Below are positions 20,877 to 30,600 of a DNA stretch of 64,000 nt, piece after piece (the first letter of the stretch is position 1; every line of letters begins with the position of its first letter). The notes below the pieces were generated by a model that had not been told where the DNA came from, searched no databases, and worked only from the letters and a program-made list of their open reading frames with translations. The position numbers and the translations under genes are program-made. Origin of the DNA: an uncultured Nitrospiraceae bacterium (GTDB lineage: Bacteria > Nitrospirota > Thermodesulfovibrionia > Thermodesulfovibrionales > Dissulfurispiraceae); NCBI GenBank assembly GCA_963727805.1, contig CAVSHF010000003.1:2304001-2368000 (forward strand), read 5' to 3'.

Positions 20877-21678
20877 ACTATGCCCCTTACCATTGGCAGA
20901 GGATCAACTGGATATCTCTATTATCCCTGAGCACTTCTGCCACGCAAACATGACGGGCGCCGGTGTGAGCAAGAGGCGAAAGATTTATTGTCAATGGACA
21001 AGGGCTGACCACTTTCGCTATCTTTCTTTAAAGTGTGCCGGGATGATTCGAAAATATGCAAGTCGTCTTAGGCCTTGAATGTAATAAAAACTCGTATATA
21101 CTGGTGAGCATCGGGAAGAGTATTACGAAAATCGAGCAGATGTCCATTAATTATAGTTCTCAAAATAAATTTCCCAGAGCGAGTTTTCTGGGCTATTTGT
21201 CCATTAATAAGAGCCATACAATATAACGCTGGGCAGATTCATCACTTCCGCCGGCAAATCTAAACGATATCCCGACTTAAATATACCCATATTTTTGTAT
21301 GGCTCTATTTTGTCTGCAATGAACTCTATGGTGACCATAGCTCTTTTCCGTTTTTGGGAGCTTCGCAGATGTTTCAGGCTTCCCTCTCGTTGCTGAGGGC
21401 TTGCTCACCACATCAGACACTTACTCCCTCACTCATCAGTGTTCCTATGGCTAGCCATAGAATAACATTGCAAGTTCGTCCTAATTAAATCATACTCCAT
21501 AAAAGACTGAAAATGAATCGGACTAAATCTAATTTTGTTGTCAGACTTGTCCTACAAGGCGTTGCATTGAGCAAAGACAAAATTAAATTCCCAGAGTGTA
21601 GTTGAAAACGCGTTCTTAAATCCTTAGTCTAAAATAGTGTCTGTAGTAACTGTTAAAGCAAATCCAATTTTATGCGAT

Positions 21679-22335
21679 TTACAGGATATCCGGTTTATCG
21701 CTCACGATCCCGTCTACACCTTTGGCTCTGTATGTTTCCACCTCGTCCTTTGAATTGATCGTCCATACTACTACCTTCAGATTATTCTTATGAGCTTCTC
21801 CTACATTTTTTGTATGAATGAATTTGTACAAGGGCAAGAGATATTGTGAGTGAAGCGCCATAGCCGAGGCAATAGGGTTCTTATGCCGGACATAAATCAA
21901 GCCGGTCTCGATGTCCTTGTCGAGTCTTCTAATTTCGGAAAGAGATGCTTCATGAAAAGAGACGATGATGATATAATCACGAAGCCTTGACTTTTTAATC
22001 TGCCTAAGGACTTCACTTTCATAGCCTTCCTTCTTCAATTCCACGAGGATCTTATCAACCTTTTTGTTGATGAATTCAAGGGTTTCCTGGAACGTAGGGA
22101 TTTTATCCCTTGTAAGTGCCTTCAAGTCCCTTAATAAAGAGCCCTCTGTAGGAATGTCCTGCCCGAAAACTCTCTTTAGATTGTCGTCATGACTTACGAC
22201 CAATCTATTGTCAGCTGTCTGTTGCAAATCTAATTCAATAGCATTCGCGCCAAGTTCGATCGCCTTTCTGAAACTTTCGATAGTATTCTCGGTTTCATAA
22301 GCCTTTGCCCCTCTATGTCCTACCTTCAAGAACAA
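21679..22335 (-). CDS. Glycerophosphodiester phosphodiesterase
   Basis: GHRGA, ENT, IELD, HDD, VWTIN, GIVSD motifs. Confidence 0.9.
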   Translation of the reverse strand: MFLKVGHRGAKAYETENTIESFRKAIELGANAIELDLQQTADNRLVVSHDDNLKRVFGQDIPTEGSLLRDLKALTRDKIPTFQETLEFINKKVDKILVELKKEGYESEVLRQIKKSRLRDYIIIVSFHEASLSEIRRLDKDIETGLIYVRHKNPIASAMALHSQYLLPLYKFIHTKNVGEAHKNNLKVVVWTINSKDEVETYRAKGVDGIVSDKPDIL

Positions 22336-22785
22336 TATCCTTCACCTGCTGAAGTGCTTGAATTTATACTTTTACCATTCTTGCAAGCGATATATATCAG
22401 CATATCCAATGAACAGGGCATCGTTCATAGTGTATCAATATGTTCATCCCAATTTCCCAAGGGATTTTACTTTTGATTAATAAACATTGTGTGGGATATT
22501 AAAGGAAGTTGTAAATAAGGGGAAAGGGTTTATACCTCGAAGATAATAAAGGGAATATTCAAGCAAATAACGGCTTTATTATCTCTTGACAACCCAAAAA
22601 GTTCAGTGTGATTTAAAGACTTCCAGAATGCAGCTTTGACGTACATTTATCCGGAAAATTAAAGAATTCTGAACGCTACTGGTTGCCTTGTAGATCTAAA
22701 AAGTGACGGAATGACAATTGCTAAATTGTGCTAGTCAATACAAATATTTATAACCGAAGTACCGATTCTAGTTTATTTGTTCAAT

Positions 22786-22948
22786 AAAAAAGTGGTGCTT
22801 GCTTCCTTTCTCTACTCAGCGGTTTGCAACATCTTGAGACATTCGACATGAGACTCTTTGTGTCTGACATCTTACGTCCTGCGACTTTACAACCATTCGC
22901 TGAGCTCTGAAAGGAGCAAGACCACCACTTGGTGAGCGTGTCCTCTTG
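22786..22948 (-). ncRNA. Candidate rod-shaped non-coding RNA (unclassified)
   Basis: Nested helices AAGUGGUG/CACCACUU, CUUGCU/AGCAAG, CCUUUC/GAAAGG, CUCAGCG/CGCUGAG, GACGU/AUGUC, AGAC/GUCU over 22790-22930; G-U pairs on the minus strand; promoter upstream; ends in U6. Confidence 0.65.
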
Positions 22949-22953
22949 ATTCA

Positions 22954-22982
22954 TTTATACACCCATTTCCGGTCATTGTCAA
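22954..22982 (-). promoter_or_regulatory. Sigma70-type promoter
   Basis: TTGACA (22982-22977), 17-bp spacer, TATAAA (22959-22954). Confidence 0.75.
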
Positions 22983-23033
22983 GTTAATTTTTATGCAACA
23001 GTTAATTTTTATGCAATGTTAATTTTTATGCAA
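22983..23033. repeat. Three exact 16-bp direct repeats GTTAATTTTTATGCAA
   Basis: Copies at 22983-22998, 23001-23016 and 23018-23033. Confidence 0.95.
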
Positions 23034-23183
23034 CCTTTTTAAAGGGAAAAGAACTCAGATTTAATCGACAAAATACCACAATTTATCGCAAATACAACTG
23101 TAATTGCCAAAAATATAGCCCGATTCCCAATATATACCTTCTCAAATTGCATCTGTATACATTATGGAAATTCCGGGCAGGTT

Positions 23184-25311
23184 TCCGGGTAGGAGCAGCG
23201 ATTGCTCGCCACTCCCCCCACAGACCCGGACGAGCCCGATTAAGGCATCCGGTTCGTCAGTAACAAGAGGCATACAGCCTCTGGCTAACTAAACGGATTC
23301 GACCCGTTTAGCGCATAACTTTGCTGACCTGCATGGTTTAGATATCATGGACTATTCGGGGCGACGGCAGTGGGAACAGCCGCTCCAGCTTTGGGAATTC
23401 ATCCTCCCAATTCATCGATCCCTTATTGCTGCGACGACTCAACCAGTAGTGCCACGCCTTCCGTACATGCCTGTAGACAAGCAGCAACTTACGGTAATTG
23501 CCTCTGATGCCGTAATATTGGTAGTGACCTTTTAACTTAAGGGTTAGAACACGACATTGTTCCTTAAGCGGCTCATGTCGGTGTTCCCGACACCACTCCC
23601 AAGCGCGCTTCATGGCCCGGCGCAGCCTTTTCTTGGCTGTTTGCCGCTTTACTATCCAGTACCCCCGCCGCGTCTTCGCCCAGTAGTGCGTAAAACCCAA
23701 AAAGTCAATGCTCCCATTTTCCTCAGGGTCGCTCTTGCCTTTTGGCCTTCCGAACCTAACCAGCTTCGTCTTTGTCGGGTGTATCGTTAGCCCGTACTGT
23801 TGGAGTCTCTCAGTCAGAACGGGCAATATCCATTGTGCATCAGATTCGTGTTCGCATCCGATTAGAAAGTCATCGGCAAAACGAATCAGAAAGCTCTGTC
23901 CCTTAATGCTGGGCTTCACTTCCTTGACATACCACTCATCCAGCACATGGTGTAGGAATATATTGGCCAGAATCGGCGATATGACTCCGCCCTGCGGCGT
24001 GCCCTTCTCTGGGTATGTCAGAGTTTCCCCTTCTATTACCCCGGCATTCAGCCATTTGCCGATTAGCCGTATTATTCCTCCATCGTTGACCCTTTGCCTG
24101 ATTATTTCCAACAGCCTGCCGTGATCGATATTATCGAAATAGCCTTTGACATCCGCATCCACTATCCAGCCGATGTTCCCTTTCACGCATTTCTGTTGAA
24201 GCTCGCTTAACGCCTGATGCTGGCTATGGCCGCGTCTGAAGCCGTGAGAGAAGGCGAAAAAGTCGCTCTCATACACTGCCTCAAGGAGCATCGCTACCGC
24301 ACGTTGAACTACTTTGTCTTCAAACGTCGGAAGTCCTAACGGCCTTTCCCCTCCGTCATCCTTAGGTATCCACACCCGGTTTACAGGCGGAGCATGATAC
24401 CGTCCTCCCTTGAGTCGTGTGTGCAGCTCCCGTAGATTTTCTTCGAGGTTTGATGCGTATTCTTCTGCTGTGACCCGGTCTATACCGGGCGCAGCGTCTT
24501 TTCGGGTCAGCCTGTAGGCTTCCCGCAAGAATTCCACATCTACGTGGTGCGCCAGCGTAGTGAACACCATCTCCGGATACCGGATGGCCTGCGCTGCAAT
24601 CCACCGAAGTTTCGTTGATACGGTTTGTGAGTTCGAAGCCTCTCCCATATTTCCTCTCGGTGAAACGTTATACCCGGCCTCGCCTTCCCTTCAGTGGGTC
24701 CCTTGGTCCTCGGTTCCCCACCTTCCCGGCCCGCTGGGGCCTTCGGTACTATGCTCGGCTAAGACTGCCTCATGTCCATCCCTAGTCTCTTCGTTTGTCA
24801 CTCGATTCCCGGTACCACGTTTGCTCTCTGTCTTCGTTCGTCGATGTGCGAGAGCCCTCACCGACGCCTGGGGCTTTTGTTCTTCCGGTCGCCCTCTTCC
24901 CTTCCGGTTCTCAACGTGGAGACATGCGGCCCTCCCAAGTTCCCGATCTATCCCTTTGAATGTATGCCCTGCTCTCAGACCCCGGTGGTGTTCTGATGCT
25001 CGCCATTGCGCATTCAGAACTGCTGTCTTCCAGTTGTCCGAGACTGTCGACTTTCCCTCCAATGCCCTGAAGGTTATCTTACTGACCACAATGTCAACGA
25101 TTTCGGGGCTCACTAACACGGCCTACATTCTCGCTACACCCAGCTCCGCACCTCCCCTCGCGAGGACGCACGCGGGTTCGCTTCCGACCTGTTGGCTAAG
25201 CTTTGGCCGGATGGGACTTGAGGTTTTCCGCCTCTCACCCATTGGATAGCAACAGCAAATTTCATCTCCTTTTCGCGAGATTCCCGATGCCTCGGATTTA
25301 CCTTGGCGCGA
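23184..25311 (-). mobile_element. Group II intron, apparently full length (class E-like)
   Basis: Domain V at 23255-23223 (GAACCGGAUGCC...GUCCGGGUC); domain VI ending CUACCCGGA; 5' end UCGCGCC; EBS1 region at 25040-25033 complementary to the 5' exon; RT ORF inside. 3' boundary uncertain by about 1 nt. Confidence 0.9.
23338..24648 (-). CDS. ltrA: Group II intron reverse transcriptase/maturase, no endonuclease domain
   Basis: RVWIPK, RPLGLPTFEDK, GTPQGG, RFADD, DFLGF and maturase X domain; 436 aa. Confidence 0.95.
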   Translation of the reverse strand: MGEASNSQTVSTKLRWIAAQAIRYPEMVFTTLAHHVDVEFLREAYRLTRKDAAPGIDRVTAEEYASNLEENLRELHTRLKGGRYHAPPVNRVWIPKDDGGERPLGLPTFEDKVVQRAVAMLLEAVYESDFFAFSHGFRRGHSQHQALSELQQKCVKGNIGWIVDADVKGYFDNIDHGRLLEIIRQRVNDGGIIRLIGKWLNAGVIEGETLTYPEKGTPQGGVISPILANIFLHHVLDEWYVKEVKPSIKGQSFLIRFADDFLIGCEHESDAQWILPVLTERLQQYGLTIHPTKTKLVRFGRPKGKSDPEENGSIDFLGFTHYWAKTRRGYWIVKRQTAKKRLRRAMKRAWEWCREHRHEPLKEQCRVLTLKLKGHYQYYGIRGNYRKLLLVYRHVRKAWHYWLSRRSNKGSMNWEDEFPKLERLFPLPSPRIVHDI

Positions 25312-25568
25312 CGGACAACCGTTCCGATTTAGAAACGGGGCAAGGTACTTGGATTATCTGGCTACATCTTCGTGGCGCAGTTGCGGTTCGGACGGTTGCT
25401 ATAACTTTGGGATAGCCTGACCACTGCGAAACATGAAGTGCCCGTGCACAGGGCGAGATGATGCAACTCGGTGTACATAGAGCTTCTTACGCCATTTCAG
25501 TTAGACCATCATGTCGACAGCCTCTTGAATCATTTTACTAAGACGGCCATAAGTAAGAATACATGATC

Positions 25569-26402: not shown

Positions 26403-26558
26403 ATTTGACCCTCCATTCCCTATATCGACTAATAATTTCATTATCACAGAAATGCAATTATTTTCCAGTGCCATAGCACACAAAATGGGAACAATTTGCT
26501 TATTTAGTGACACACATCACCTGTATATTCGCGGAAAGCACAAAGCGCCACCAGCTAA

Positions 26559-28204
26559 CCCAGATAATTCATAAATAATCGGCAAAAAAATAGCCAACGT
26601 CCTTTGAACCTTGGTATTATTGAAGGTGCGAGCAACAAAAACCCAAGAAAGGACATTGGCTACTATGACAAAGTGTAACACAGAACAGCTTGGATTTTCA
26701 TTCCTGCGGAAGCGCAAACTGACGGTGGATTTTGGAGGCGGAGAGATCACATCTGACTCCGGACTTCTGCTTGTCAGGCAGGCCGATCAAGCATTGGGAC
26801 TCTTGAAAGGATTGGCGAGCTGCATCACAGACCGGCGGGATTGTCGGTACACAGATCATGACTTGTTGACTCTTCTGAGACAGCGAATATATCAGATAGT
26901 GGCAGGCTATGAAGACTGCAATGACGCGAACTTTCTGAGGAAAGATCCCGCATTGAAAGCAGCTTGCGGCAGGATGCCAAGCGACAAGGAACTGGGATCG
27001 CAGCCTACACTGTCGAGGTTGGAGAACACCGTAACCCAAGAAGATCTTTATCGGATGGGGCAGTGGTTTGTTGATCTGTATGTCCGTCGCAACCGGAAGC
27101 GTAAGCCAAAGCGAATCATCATTGATGTCGACGGCACCGACGATCCTACATATGGGGACCAACAGCTCACCTTTTTTCACGGCTACTATGATCAGTATAT
27201 GTATCATCCTTTGTTGGTCTATGATGCTGATACAGGAGAGATGATCACAGCAGTATTGAGGGCAGGCAATCGACACGCAAGTTATGGCGTGGTTTCAATC
27301 TTGAAGCGGATAGTGGCGAGGCTCCAGGCAGCGTTTCCCAATGCTGAGATCATCATACGAGGTGACGCGGGGTTTGCGATCCCGGCCTTATATGAGTACT
27401 GCGAGAAAGAAAAGCTGAGTTATGTAATCGGCCTTATTCGCAACGACGTACTGGAGCGAATGATCGAAAGACTTCTTGAGAAGGTACAATCTCTCCACGA
27501 AAAGACAGGACAGAAGCAACGACTCTTTGCAGAGGGTTTTTATCAGGCACAGAGCTGGGAAAAAGAACGCCGAGTAATCATGAAGGCCGAATGGCTGCCG
27601 CAGGGACCAAACCGTCGGTTTGTGGTGACGAATCTTTCTATGGAGGCCAAACAACTCTACGAGTTCTACACAGAGCGCGGTGGCACTTGCGAGGTGCGCA
27701 TTGATGAATTCAAAAACGGGCTGAAGGCGGATCGGTTAAGTTGCCATCGTTTTGCTGCCAATCAGTTCAGGCTTTTTCTGCACATGGCTGCATATTGGCT
27801 CGTACTGCGGCTCAGACAAGCGCTTGCTGAAACAGAGTTCTCATCGATGCAGATTCAGCAGCTCAGGACAAGGATCTTAAAGATCGGCGGCCAAGTAGTT
27901 CAGACAGCCAGACGGGTATGGTTCCGCCTGGCGAGCGGCTATCCTTGGAAAGACATCTTTGCCTTGGCATATCGACGACTTGCCGCTGATACCTGCTGAA
28001 ATTTCCCGAAGCCCAAAAGCACAGTAAAGTTCCAACGGGTGAAGTGCGCTCAAAACAGGGCTGCAGTGTCCCATACATCGTATTGCATGCGACCACAAGC
28101 CTCTCGTCACCTCAAAAAGTTGACTGACAATCCATTCTACCGTGCTCTCAGCGATGAAACAGCTTCAATTCGGCTCAGTTCTGAAAATTTATGAATTAAC
28201 TGGG
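26559..28204 (+). mobile_element. IS1380-family insertion sequence, intact
   Basis: Terminal IRs CCCAGATAATTCATAAAT / ATTTATGAATTAACTGGG; CTAA duplicated at 26555-26558 and 28205-28208. Confidence 0.93.
26665..27999 (+). CDS. IS1380-family DDE transposase
   Basis: FGGGEITSDSG, GYEDCND, SQPTLSRLEN, RGDAGF, RGGTCEVRIDEFK. Confidence 0.93.
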   Translation: MTKCNTEQLGFSFLRKRKLTVDFGGGEITSDSGLLLVRQADQALGLLKGLASCITDRRDCRYTDHDLLTLLRQRIYQIVAGYEDCNDANFLRKDPALKAACGRMPSDKELGSQPTLSRLENTVTQEDLYRMGQWFVDLYVRRNRKRKPKRIIIDVDGTDDPTYGDQQLTFFHGYYDQYMYHPLLVYDADTGEMITAVLRAGNRHASYGVVSILKRIVARLQAAFPNAEIIIRGDAGFAIPALYEYCEKEKLSYVIGLIRNDVLERMIERLLEKVQSLHEKTGQKQRLFAEGFYQAQSWEKERRVIMKAEWLPQGPNRRFVVTNLSMEAKQLYEFYTERGGTCEVRIDEFKNGLKADRLSCHRFAANQFRLFLHMAAYWLVLRLRQALAETEFSSMQIQQLRTRILKIGGQVVQTARRVWFRLASGYPWKDIFALAYRRLAADTC

Positions 28205-29062
28205 CTAAAACGATCGAGAACTCGGCACTCTCAATCTCACTTTATTTCACGATACTAATAAAGAGAAGAATATGGATAAAGGTAGCGATGACACCATAGT
28301 GACATGCAGTATCAGACTTCAAGACCTCAAGCAGTGGGAAATGAACGGCAAGGAGACTATACCGTTTTACCTTCACGCGGGAGATAGTGGCGGCTTGGTG
28401 TTCAATGATAAGCCGGAAATCGCATGCCAGTTGATAAGGATATACAATACGCAGAAGATTTCCTTTTACATAAAGCTCGTCTCCTTCCTCAACGCCGAGC
28501 GAGTCGCAGCTCGGATAGTTTCGGCACCGCTAGACGATGTGCTCGAGGTTCACGCCCAACTCTCGAACAATTATGCGCTGAGTCGGTTAAGGTCCTCAAA
28601 GCTAGTGGGGATCATCCCAACCTTTCTGGTGGTCACCGACAATCTCCATTCAGAAATGCGACTTGGTGGCTGCTACTCCGAGTTTCTTAAGTCAAATAGT
28701 CCACAAAGATAATGGGGCGTACACTGCAAGCCACTTGTGATACATTTTTTCGGGAATAAATACCTCCGGGGAAATATCCGCGGTAAAGGTTATCAGGTGA
28801 ATATAAGACTGAAGGAAATCACTTTATGAGACTAAAAAGACCTACGTGTAAATCGGCATCGAATTCTGACCCATCATCGGCGCCCGATGGCGACCCACTC
28901 ATTCATATGCTAAGAAGCTTAAGAACAATATGTTGCAACATTAGCAGGCGAGTCATAGATGAATGCCGATTTAAGCTAAAAGCGCATCAAATGGTCATGC
29001 CGATCAACAGGCAACATAGTAGTACCCATATAGAGGGCACCCATATAGAGGGCACGTGTCAA

Positions 29063-29440
29063 GAGAAAAAATATCCCTATCAAGAAAATCCTTCTTGTTT
29101 TTTTGTTTCAGTTATCATCGTCTATCACCAGTGCCGTTTTTTCTTTAAATAGTGTGTCAGCCTTCACTGCACCACGCACCCATCAGGATTAAGGTAATGC
29201 CCCAAAACATGTACTGCAAGGCAAAACCCTTTCCGCTCATATGCGGACCAGAAAACCTTCGGTACCGGGCCGGGTCCATTTGTTATATCTCAGATTGCAT
29301 GGTTATTAACCAACCCTCACTGGCTCCCGACGCGGACAGTAAAGACGTCGATAACTTTTATGTTACTGCAGGGGACGGGTTCCAATCAGGTGCTTGGCTT
29401 ATTTCCAACTACTCAGTAGGTTCATCGTCCCCTCCAGGTC
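29063..29440 (-). ncRNA. Putative bridge/seek RNA region of the IS1111 element (boundaries approximate)
   Basis: About 380 nt non-coding downstream of the transposase; stem/internal-loop/stem at 29432-29371 with loop segments matching the insertion flanks. Confidence 0.65.
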
Positions 29441-29441
29441 C

Positions 29442-30461
29442 TTATTGAAATGCTTTATCCGGCATAAATATAACCCCATCCCTCATTATGTAATACGCAG
29501 CTCGGGTCAACTTGTGCGCCAGAGCGTTATGTGCAATAGGAGCGTTTGTTTGTTTCAGCTTGCGCTGATAATATTTTTGTGCTTCGGCATCGTGGAACCG
29601 TGCATGGTCTGAAGCTTCAGAAAACGCCCATGCCAGATACTTATTGCCGTTCTTCCTGTTGCCGGTCCCTTTCTTTTTGTCATTACTAAACCTTCCTGCT
29701 GGGACTTTCCTGCAATATGAAGCGTAGTTACCCACAGTCCGGAATCGTTCGATAGAACCAGTTTCTAACATGATAGTAGATGCGAGGATCTTGCCTACCC
29801 CAGGCATGCTTAGAAGACGGTCATAGGGATGACTTAAATGTATCCTTCCATCAATGATGTCCTCCATCGCCTTGATCTGTCTGGTCATGAAGTCTATAGT
29901 TTCCTTGCTCACTTTACCCGCCAGTGCAAGATCCTCGTTGTCAGCAAACAGAGGACTTACTCTGTCCGTCATCAGAAACTTCACATCGTTTGACTTCAGT
30001 CTACTGCCCAGGTTCCGTGCCACAATGTTCTGCAGGCTTACGATGAGAGATGTCCTAAGTTTTACTAAATGTCCTCTCTTCCTCAACAGGTCCCTTATCG
30101 GCCGTTCTTCTTTTGGGTAAATGTACCCCTTAGGCAATATGCACAATCGAAGCATCTCGGCAAGCCAGAAGGCATCATGTTTGTCAGTAGAGTATTTCAG
30201 TCCAGCGTATTGCTGAGCTTTCATTACGTTGGCTAGATGCACCTGGTATCCCTCCTCCTTAAGTAGATCAACTAAAAAGTACCAGTTGTATGTCGACTCT
30301 ACAACAATCCCTTCAATGTCACCTTTGTATGGCCTGAGCGTTTCCTTGATTGTTGCCGGTTCATTAAGGATCTTCTTCTTGAAAATCCTCTTTCCAGTTT
30401 CATCGATGATTCCCACATACGAGTTGTTTGAATGTAAATCAAAACCTGCGTATAATCCCAT
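29442..30461 (-). CDS. IS110-family DEDD transposase/recombinase
   Basis: GFDLH, VVEST, TDKHDA motifs; SMPGVG and ASYC in the C-terminal domain; AGGAGG RBS. Confidence 0.93.
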   Translation of the reverse strand: MGLYAGFDLHSNNSYVGIIDETGKRIFKKKILNEPATIKETLRPYKGDIEGIVVESTYNWYFLVDLLKEEGYQVHLANVMKAQQYAGLKYSTDKHDAFWLAEMLRLCILPKGYIYPKEERPIRDLLRKRGHLVKLRTSLIVSLQNIVARNLGSRLKSNDVKFLMTDRVSPLFADNEDLALAGKVSKETIDFMTRQIKAMEDIIDGRIHLSHPYDRLLSMPGVGKILASTIMLETGSIERFRTVGNYASYCRKVPAGRFSNDKKKGTGNRKNGNKYLAWAFSEASDHARFHDAEAQKYYQRKLKQTNAPIAHNALAHKLTRAAYYIMRDGVIFMPDKAFQ

Positions 30462-30600
30462 ACGGCACCTCCTAAAGGTTAAGATTGGCGTCTTGCCTTT
30501 GAGCATATCAATATATGATATGCTCGGGAGGTGCCCTCTATATGATTATCAGGTGATGTGAAACACATCTTTATGAGTTACTGCGTTATAAAATTGAACT

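Follow-up and report, generated by a model that had tools for sequence, protein, structure and literature searches.

To our knowledge, few bacterial RNAs act as protein decoys, namely, 6S RNA, Ms1, the CsrB-type RNAs, and a handful more. The CsrB-type decoys (CsrB, CsrC, and RsmX, RsmY, and RsmZ) have their own promoter and terminator, carry a short motif that is repeated a variable number of times, and occur as several paralogues per genome. In Y RNAs, including YrlA and YrlB, a bulged helix formed from both ends is combined with a variable distal domain and a U-tail. The RNAs of type III toxin-antitoxin systems (ToxI/AbiQ) consist of a promoter, tandem repeats, and a terminator, the ToxI units being pseudoknots of approximately 35 nt. 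One source describes 6S RNA (SsrS, RF00013) as a stand-alone rod of 160 to 200 nt with imperfect helices, closed by pairing of its 5' and 3' ends, and states that the central bubble with short flanking helices suffices for function (PMC8876501). In the Bacillus cereus group, two tandem 6S genes, ssrSA and ssrSB, are co-transcribed (PMC7726162).

The stretch analyzed here, referred to as the window, comprises 64,000 nucleotides from the genome of an uncultured Nitrospiraceae bacterium (G000). It harbors a predicted gene for a rod-shaped RNA, which is composed of the following elements:

22983..23033, minus strand: 16-nt A-rich element in three tandem copies, located upstream of the -35 hexamer (one copy at the paralogous locus)
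22977..22982, minus strand: -35 hexamer TTGACA
22954..22959, minus strand: -10 hexamer TATAAA, with a 17-nt spacer from the -35 hexamer
22931..22950, minus strand: predicted transcription start (likely the A at 22947) and 5' leader of about 20 nt
22945-22934, minus strand: small leader hairpin in the minimum free energy (MFE) fold
22909..22930, minus strand: 5' arm of the basal helix (GUGGUG, 2-nt bulge, CUUGCU, CCUUUC), with invariant columns in alignments A1 to A3
22814..22905, minus strand: second helix (CUCAGCG/CGCUGAG) and distal arm of about five degenerate 14- to 15-nt repeats that pair mutually, as judged from relatives, autocorrelation, and pair counts
22894-22886, 22885-22871, 22868-22855, 22854-22841, and 22840-22827, minus strand: repeat units of the window copy
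22792..22810, minus strand: 3' arm of the basal helix, ending AGCAAG CACCAC (alignments and MFE fold)
22786..22791, minus strand: U6 tract directly after the closing helix, a predicted intrinsic terminator formed by 5'-3' pairing

As the earlier note had stated from the letters, TTGACA and TATAAA point on the minus strand into an almost continuous imperfect duplex of 141 nt that runs into six U residues. The MFE rod spans 22930 to 22790 and contains helices of 8, 6, 6, 8 (7 plus one G-U), 6, 3, 6, 5, and 4 bp; the predicted transcript is about 160 nt long. Folding of the promoter strand yielded -65.6 kcal/mol (z -6.65; 0 of 200 shuffles as good), which was better than the opposite strand (-53.0 kcal/mol; z -3.55; 1 of 200 shuffles as good). 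The reported absence of a 6S-type central bubble was borne out, since the largest two-sided internal loop measures only 3 by 3. The element was also said to be more GC-rich than its surroundings; this applies to the flanks (48% versus 29% upstream and 34% downstream) but not to the window as a whole, whose mean is 49%. It remained unclassified: a search of Rfam 15 with the window rod returned no match, neither at the gathering score nor at an E value of 10 or less, and the rods of loci L175, L206, L132, and L210 had no Rfam match either. A generic promoter and terminator scan called neither element at the rod because its rules demand a T at the last -10 position and a loop of 3 to 8 nt; the long-range closing helix has no such loop and therefore fails the terminator rule. 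The expansion of the A-rich element is confined to the window copy.

Homologues were collected, as the earlier note had proposed, and a family set of 139 distinct near-full-length copies was obtained. Using a model built from 29 sequences (R1), members were found in 33 of 151 genomes of the window's order, which we infer to be Thermodesulfovibrionales; named carriers are assigned to Nitrospirota, Thermodesulfovibrionales, or Dissulfurispiraceae, apart from one labeled simply "bacterium". A broader model that includes the promoter (R2) matched 36 of the 151 genomes, adding only three, all of them weak, which were left out of the carrier count. When R1 was applied to a sample of the phylum, the 7 matching genomes out of 151 all fell inside the order, and a promoter-plus-arm pattern was absent from all 48 members of the class outside it. 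Among 61 related genomes, BLASTN detected the element in 16, although two of these matches were marginal. In metagenomes, 86 of 119 loci were true rods; the first collection pattern had been too loose, with at least 18 real rods among the 120 matches listed. Viral contigs contained no rod at 6 and 120 pattern loci (0/6 and 0/120), and phage and plasmid collections gave no relevant match. Carriers have from one to about seven copies, with up to 6 to 7 in G075, and a tree of rods placed old paralogous subfamilies side by side in single genomes. No description of the family was found in the full-text literature, where searches that included 12- to 14-nt family words returned unrelated papers only; subscription papers and supplementary motif lists, which lay outside this scope, may contain one. 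Judged by sequence, the rod represents a conserved, often multicopy family of predicted noncoding RNA genes that is uncatalogued in Rfam 15.

Promoter and 3' end are preserved throughout the family. TTGAC stood at the start of the match in 136 of 139 copies and a run of at least four U residues was present in 130; in a set of 68 copies, TTGAC[AT] was found upstream of all but one, which lies at a contig end. Among 67 distinct family promoters, 66 have TTGACA, the first two -10 positions are T in 60 and A in 59, and the last one is variable; the start region has a pyrimidine in 64 followed by an A in 63. Two other promoters of the same genome share the family's spacer signature. One precedes a short degenerate rod look-alike situated after a leuA-like gene (G000:C5:1077433-1077560, plus strand) and also carries TTGACA. 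Of 146 intergenic TTGAC promoters, the other (G000:C3:429628-429670, plus strand; L217) matches the rod spacer signature best, and AGTCTCAA comes after it; from sequence resemblance, we take it to be a cydAB promoter, followed by an Rrf2-like gene.

The predicted pairs are maintained by compensatory changes. In alignment A2 (29 sequences), 88% of cells were paired, compared with 38 to 45% in slid controls, and 21 of 50 pairs showed double changes, a number that relatedness among the sequences inflates; shuffles gave 11.4 +/- 1.7 such pairs, and 0 of 500 reached the observed value. In the more diverse alignment A3 (50 sequences), 30 of 38 pairs had double changes, subject to the same inflation. 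The basal helix with its 2-nt bulge is the most conserved part and nearly invariant (94% paired in A2; double changes in 14 of its 17 pairs in A3). Conservation of at least 90% was also seen at 11 of 37 unpaired positions, including the bulged G as well as A, CA, and G residues in loops. The promoter strand folded better than its complement in 58 of 60 rods tested out of 122, with a median z of -6.7. Judged from these alignments, the structure of the rod is under selection.

Expression data for the rod are limited to metatranscriptome contigs. Of 24 runs listed, which had small word shares, five were used. Contigs lying over the rod in close relatives came from wetland, peat, and freshwater samples. 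For the relative L005, contig depth over the rod was 195 in X1 (flanks, 12 to 34) and 442 in X3, and X2 was flat; contig depth cannot rank genes. A single X11 contig stops at 22782, beside the U-tract. Because such contigs lack strand, ends, and level and may derive from DNA, the argument for transcription comes from promoter conservation only. Independent transcription, as proposed in the earlier note, nevertheless agrees with the fact that many unrelated loci, whose neighbors are randomly oriented, have kept the promoter, the structure, and the U-tail.

In its distal arm, the rod carries self-complementary repeats of 14 to 15 nt with the consensus GUCUCARGAYGUAAA, arranged in an array whose length varies. 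The repeats are plain in L132, L174, L175, L178, and L180 and degenerate in the window copy. Across 122 rods, autocorrelation reached 0.34, 0.30, and 0.29 at lags 14, 15, and 16 against a background of 0.26 +/- 0.004, with peaks at lags 14 to 16, 22 to 23, and 29 to 30. Since the first ten bases of the unit are self-complementary around CA, two units pair into two helices of 4 bp each, the first followed by a CA/CA loop and the second by a GUAAA/GUAAA loop. The number of repeats changes by whole units: L175, with 9 repeats, equals L174, with 7, plus a 29-nt duplication, and a rod is still predicted for both. Rod length ranges from 99 to 180 nt, and one subfamily terminates instead in a GAGAY-GAUUA-GUCUC hairpin.

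This layout is shared with the CsrB-type decoys, and some rod repeats read CAGGAYG. However, A and G are about equally frequent at the GGA-type core position in 66 repeat units, so that about half of the cores are AGA rather than GGA, and the motifs pair within the rod instead of lying in hairpin loops. CsrA itself is missing from 25 of the 33 carriers. The RNA might nonetheless serve, by CsrB-like logic, to trap a protein that binds RNA sequence-specifically and is unconnected with RNA polymerase, e.g., a small RRM protein, in which case the 6S-like gene described below would be a fellow traveler in accessory regions. The repeated motif, its variable number, and the several paralogues per genome agree with this, as does the presence of RRM genes in 31 of 33 rod-positive genomes versus 68 of 118 others; an RRM gene is the immediate upstream neighbor at 2 of 62 rod loci and also occurs in the vicinity of one 6S-like locus. 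The RRM association is a weak lead, as it tracks phylogeny and was chosen after the fact. CsrA is absent from G000 and present in 8 of 33 carriers versus 63 of 118 other genomes, the repeat cores are mostly paired in predicted folds, and 5' untranslated regions (UTRs) show no motif enrichment. We consider such an unrelated binder unlikely. In G000, the repeat was not enriched in intergenic DNA, 5' UTRs, or sequences before start codons and therefore offers no target set that would indicate a binder. An mRNA target motif was dropped as a candidate because no enrichment was found. As for a DNA operator, a spacer palindrome did not outperform shuffled columns, insertion sequence (IS) ends accounted for most of the excess of GAGAC-N5-GTCTC in intergenic DNA (6 of 7), and GTCT-N2-AGAC was not enriched.

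The resemblance to Y RNA concerns the conserved bulged end helix, the variable distal domain, and the U-tail. The rod differs in having neither an Rfam match nor a conserved neighbor, and no TROVE/Ro60 gene was found in G000, the one genome searched for it. The symmetric internal loops with C-A mismatches and the GNRA-like apical loop resemble those of bacterial small SRP RNA (RF00169); however, the rod has no RF00169 match and is patchy and multicopy, and the true SRP gene resides at G000:C3:560469-560566 (75.5 bits). Putative likenesses to the anticodon loops of tRNA-Tyr, to loop E and boxB, and to NsrR half-sites were also considered.

With type III toxin-antitoxin RNAs, the rod has promoter, tandem repeats, and terminator in common, but it forms a long-range rod, its repeats are less than half as long as the pseudoknot units of ToxI, and no toxin gene lies downstream; nor was a toxin open reading frame (ORF) found inside or antisense to it. 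The same logic could operate in trans if a toxin or phage nuclease from another locus cleaved or bound the repeats, in which case the RNA would be an antitoxin or nuclease decoy. Besides the layout, the patchy distribution and shifting locus fit this, with several copies near IS elements, restriction-type genes, or tRNAs. No downstream ORF recurs, however, downstream genes are more often convergent, and neither viral copies nor phage matches were found; we regard this explanation as improbable.

The rod lacks a conserved reading frame, as indels break the frame, and a closed AUG-initiated ORF of at least 15 amino acids (aa) occurs in just 15 of 68 copies. This bears on a base-pairing small RNA or a type I toxin-antitoxin component, for which the separate promoter, the U-tail, the sibling copies, and a short AUG-started frame in the window copy could be cited. 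Almost no single-stranded seed is available, however, neither a promoter nor a flank is conserved on the opposite strand, and complementarity of the rod arms to the apical strand of the 6S-like RNA was not significant (P = 0.05 to 0.23), with no compensation visible by eye. Of all explanations weighed, we give this one very little credence.

The genomic surroundings of the window copy include two further features:

22783..23095, minus strand: segment common to a second genomic copy at G000:C3:2399648-2399925 (BLASTN)
23165-25331, minus strand: group II intron with a 436-aa reverse transcriptase (RT), one of three near-identical genomic copies

The second copy in G000 is 98% identical and lies 73 kb away. 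The duplicated segment includes about 100 bp of upstream sequence and ends at the U-tract; neither a target duplication nor a remnant of the upstream methyltransferase was found at its ends. The copy at C3:2399.6k has the same neighbors as in G003 and other congeners, and the window copy is likely its recent duplicate. The group II intron lies about 235 nt from the rod, and its other genomic copies sit elsewhere. No RT cluster was present among 515 neighbor ORFs and only the window rod is near an RT, which agrees with the earlier note's view that no functional link to the RT is apparent: the intron beside the rod is incidental. A retron msr-msd or other RT-associated RNA was discarded, as no RT gene is conserved next to the rod. 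The exon sequences flanking the three intron sites are alike. The window also contains two IS elements (26556-28207 and 29039-30555), with three and two near-identical genomic copies, respectively.

A mobile promoter-hairpin-terminator cassette, selfish or neutral and devoid of RNA function (MITE/REP-like), would account for the shifting locus, the recent duplicate, and the inverted terminal arms with A/T tails. Many copies with target duplications had been named earlier as the mark of a MITE; G000 has just two full copies in 3.9 Mb and shows no target duplication, and a MITE was rejected. In addition, the conserved promoter lies outside the inverted arms, compensatory changes extend across families, old paralogous subfamilies coexist in one genome, and the rod has kept its position within genus g1 and part of g9. 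A functionless cassette is therefore highly improbable.

Beyond local synteny and very common domains, no protein neighbor recurred at 62 loci or, in a separate comparison, among 515 neighbor ORFs. Among 37 metagenomic loci scored, the downstream gene was randomly oriented (21 opposite, 16 same), and a cis-acting attenuator or riboswitch was dismissed in view of this inconsistent same-strand gene. Kinship with the locus of a 44-aa protein and attenuator was rejected too, as the hairpin is different and no motif was shared by eye; that protein and its paralogue (G000:C3, about 1621600-1621730, and 1617928-1618263) presumably resemble DUF2292-type small proteins. The random orientation of its neighbors agrees with the earlier designation of the rod as stand-alone. 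This designation has to be qualified in one respect, since its gene is recurrently linked to that of a second RNA. In the window, the arrangement is as follows:

21312..21477, minus strand: non-canonical 6S-like RNA with closing stem, central bubble, and 6S-type apical stem (fold z -3.07; 127.8 bits with model R3)
21679..22335, minus strand: GDPD gene between both RNA genes (Pfam GDPD E value, 1.5e-37), a neighbor that is not recurrent

G000 has three 6S-like paralogues (window 21312-21477; C3:991593-991757; C3:108872-109035). The paralogues of the window gene scored 29.8 and 14.5 bits with RF00013, below the cut-off of 46.4, and a canonical 6S gene is present elsewhere in the genome (82.3 bits). 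Upstream of two of these genes lies the same palindrome-like element (window about 21520-21557).

Applying the 6S-like model R3 at a threshold of at least 70 bits, we detected this RNA in 44 of 151 genomes of the order, with up to eight matches in G075; 16 genomes with 48 to 60 bits were excluded from the count. It was present in 23 of 33 rod-positive versus 21 of 118 other genomes (Fisher P = 4e-8, which is overstated because kin are not independent), leaving 10 carriers with no match at this threshold. Both genes lay within 3.1 kb of each other in 7 of the 23 genomes having both and were not adjacent in the other 16, which are draft assemblies. The distance was 1.3 kb in G000, 85 and 468 nt in G075, and 3.0 kb in G154, where the genes converge. 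In G101, G136, G155, and G167, the gap measures 8 to 9 nt, with no second promoter and a U-tract of 4 to 5 nt; rod and 6S-like RNA are fused in these four genomes behind a single predicted promoter. Of 99 rod loci scanned, 12 had both RNAs, some being near-copies. On the rod tree, 10 of the 12 adjacent copies belong to one subclade (support 90/87), so independent events are few; the window and G154 copies fall outside, and adjacency requires at least four gains or losses. The linkage could in part reflect insertion hot spots common to both genes because several of the loci are rich in mobile and accessory genes, and an unrelated 73-aa ORF was likewise found at three such loci (L255:917-1135, plus strand; L176:429-647 and L333:189-407, minus strand). 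This ORF, which is usually followed by one of about 96 aa, matched strongly in 9 of 151 genomes, all of which have the 6S-like RNA; G000 does not have it. Neither ORF has a Pfam match, the 73-aa ORF has no Atlas match, and no rod adjoined it in 10 loci checked.

Two other observations concern the 6S-like genes. At L474:1-987 (G170), a sigma70 paralogue and an RRM gene are located directly beside one. Furthermore, G000 contains an uncatalogued family of multi-hairpin RNAs of about 235 nt, here called X (C3:177212-177445, plus strand; C4:30496-30730 and C3:108627-108860, minus strand; loci L218, L214, and L026). It has no Rfam match; two of its three copies stand behind a rod-type promoter and 5' hairpin, and one follows directly after a 6S-like gene.

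With 6S RNA, the rod shares its overall shape with imperfect helices, closure by 5'-3' pairing, and the tandem co-transcription predicted at fused loci. It differs in that it lacks a central bubble, an RF00013 score, and detectable homology, its distal arm consists of tandem repeats of variable number, and it is patchy, canonical 6S being a separate gene. It could still be a 6S paralogue of tandem-duplication origin that has diverged strongly, no longer has the central bubble, and binds a sigma70-family holoenzyme with no release by product RNA (pRNA). Similar length, the self-terminating layout, and three group 1/2-like sigma70 genes in G000 are compatible with this origin, as is the tandem or fused arrangement, which resembles the B. 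cereus group pair (PMC7726162). In the best local alignments, moreover, the arms of the rod map collinearly onto both strands of the apical stem of the 6S-like RNA. That arm similarity is not significant (P = 0.22 to 0.84), however, and the same applies to shared k-mers (P = 0.05 to 1.0) and global alignment (mean z, -0.3 to 0.7); no hidden Markov model (HMM) cross-hit was obtained, R3 did not match rods, and RF00013 matched neither rod locus of G000, where canonical 6S is already encoded elsewhere. In 39 of 40 copies, the shorter side of two-sided loops was 6 nt or less, and the helix at the position of the 6S bubble covaries in part, whereas the bubble is the core of 6S function (PMC8876501). 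We judge descent from 6S RNA to be quite unlikely.

Taken together, we tentatively favor the reading that the rod is a multi-site protein decoy acting alongside the linked 6S-like RNA, to which we assign a rough probability of 0.4. Among the roles suggested in the earlier note (protein decoy, antitoxin, or RNase III substrate), protein decoy fits best, and a cis-acting antitoxin is at odds with the lack of a toxin ORF and of a conserved frame. Within the decoy reading, that some protein is bound has somewhat better than even odds, and a tie to RNA polymerase or 6S biology somewhat worse than even; the transcription machinery is a possible target because the rod is likely to form one module with the 6S-like RNA. 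A sigma70-type promoter would drive the transcript, which the closing helix and U-tract would terminate, and the resulting rod would be stable and abundant. At fused loci, a single precursor would carry both RNAs. Repeat pairs would provide a recurring module of two-fold symmetry, suited to a dimeric or DNA-type binder, whose symmetric loops may serve as protein sites; repeat number and gene copy number would then set the trapping capacity. It is conceivable, if doubtful, that the two RNAs form a module that shuts down or redirects transcription, the 6S-like RNA mimicking an open promoter and the rod mimicking closed duplex DNA with tunable symmetric sites that trap a second component, such as a sigma factor, the C-terminal domain of the alpha subunit (alpha-CTD), or a DNA-binding regulator.

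The family fails the membership tests for the known decoy RNAs tested here, and its build is unusual in that self-pairing tandem repeats lengthen the rod in whole units. Its genes are linked to those of non-canonical 6S paralogues. The rod and the 6S-like RNA are small and lend themselves to in vitro synthesis, so that RNA polymerase binding and the identity of a partner are directly testable, and the family alignments and models are ready for Rfam-type curation. If true, the two-RNA module would mean that the bacterial transcription apparatus is targeted by a new class of decoy RNA.
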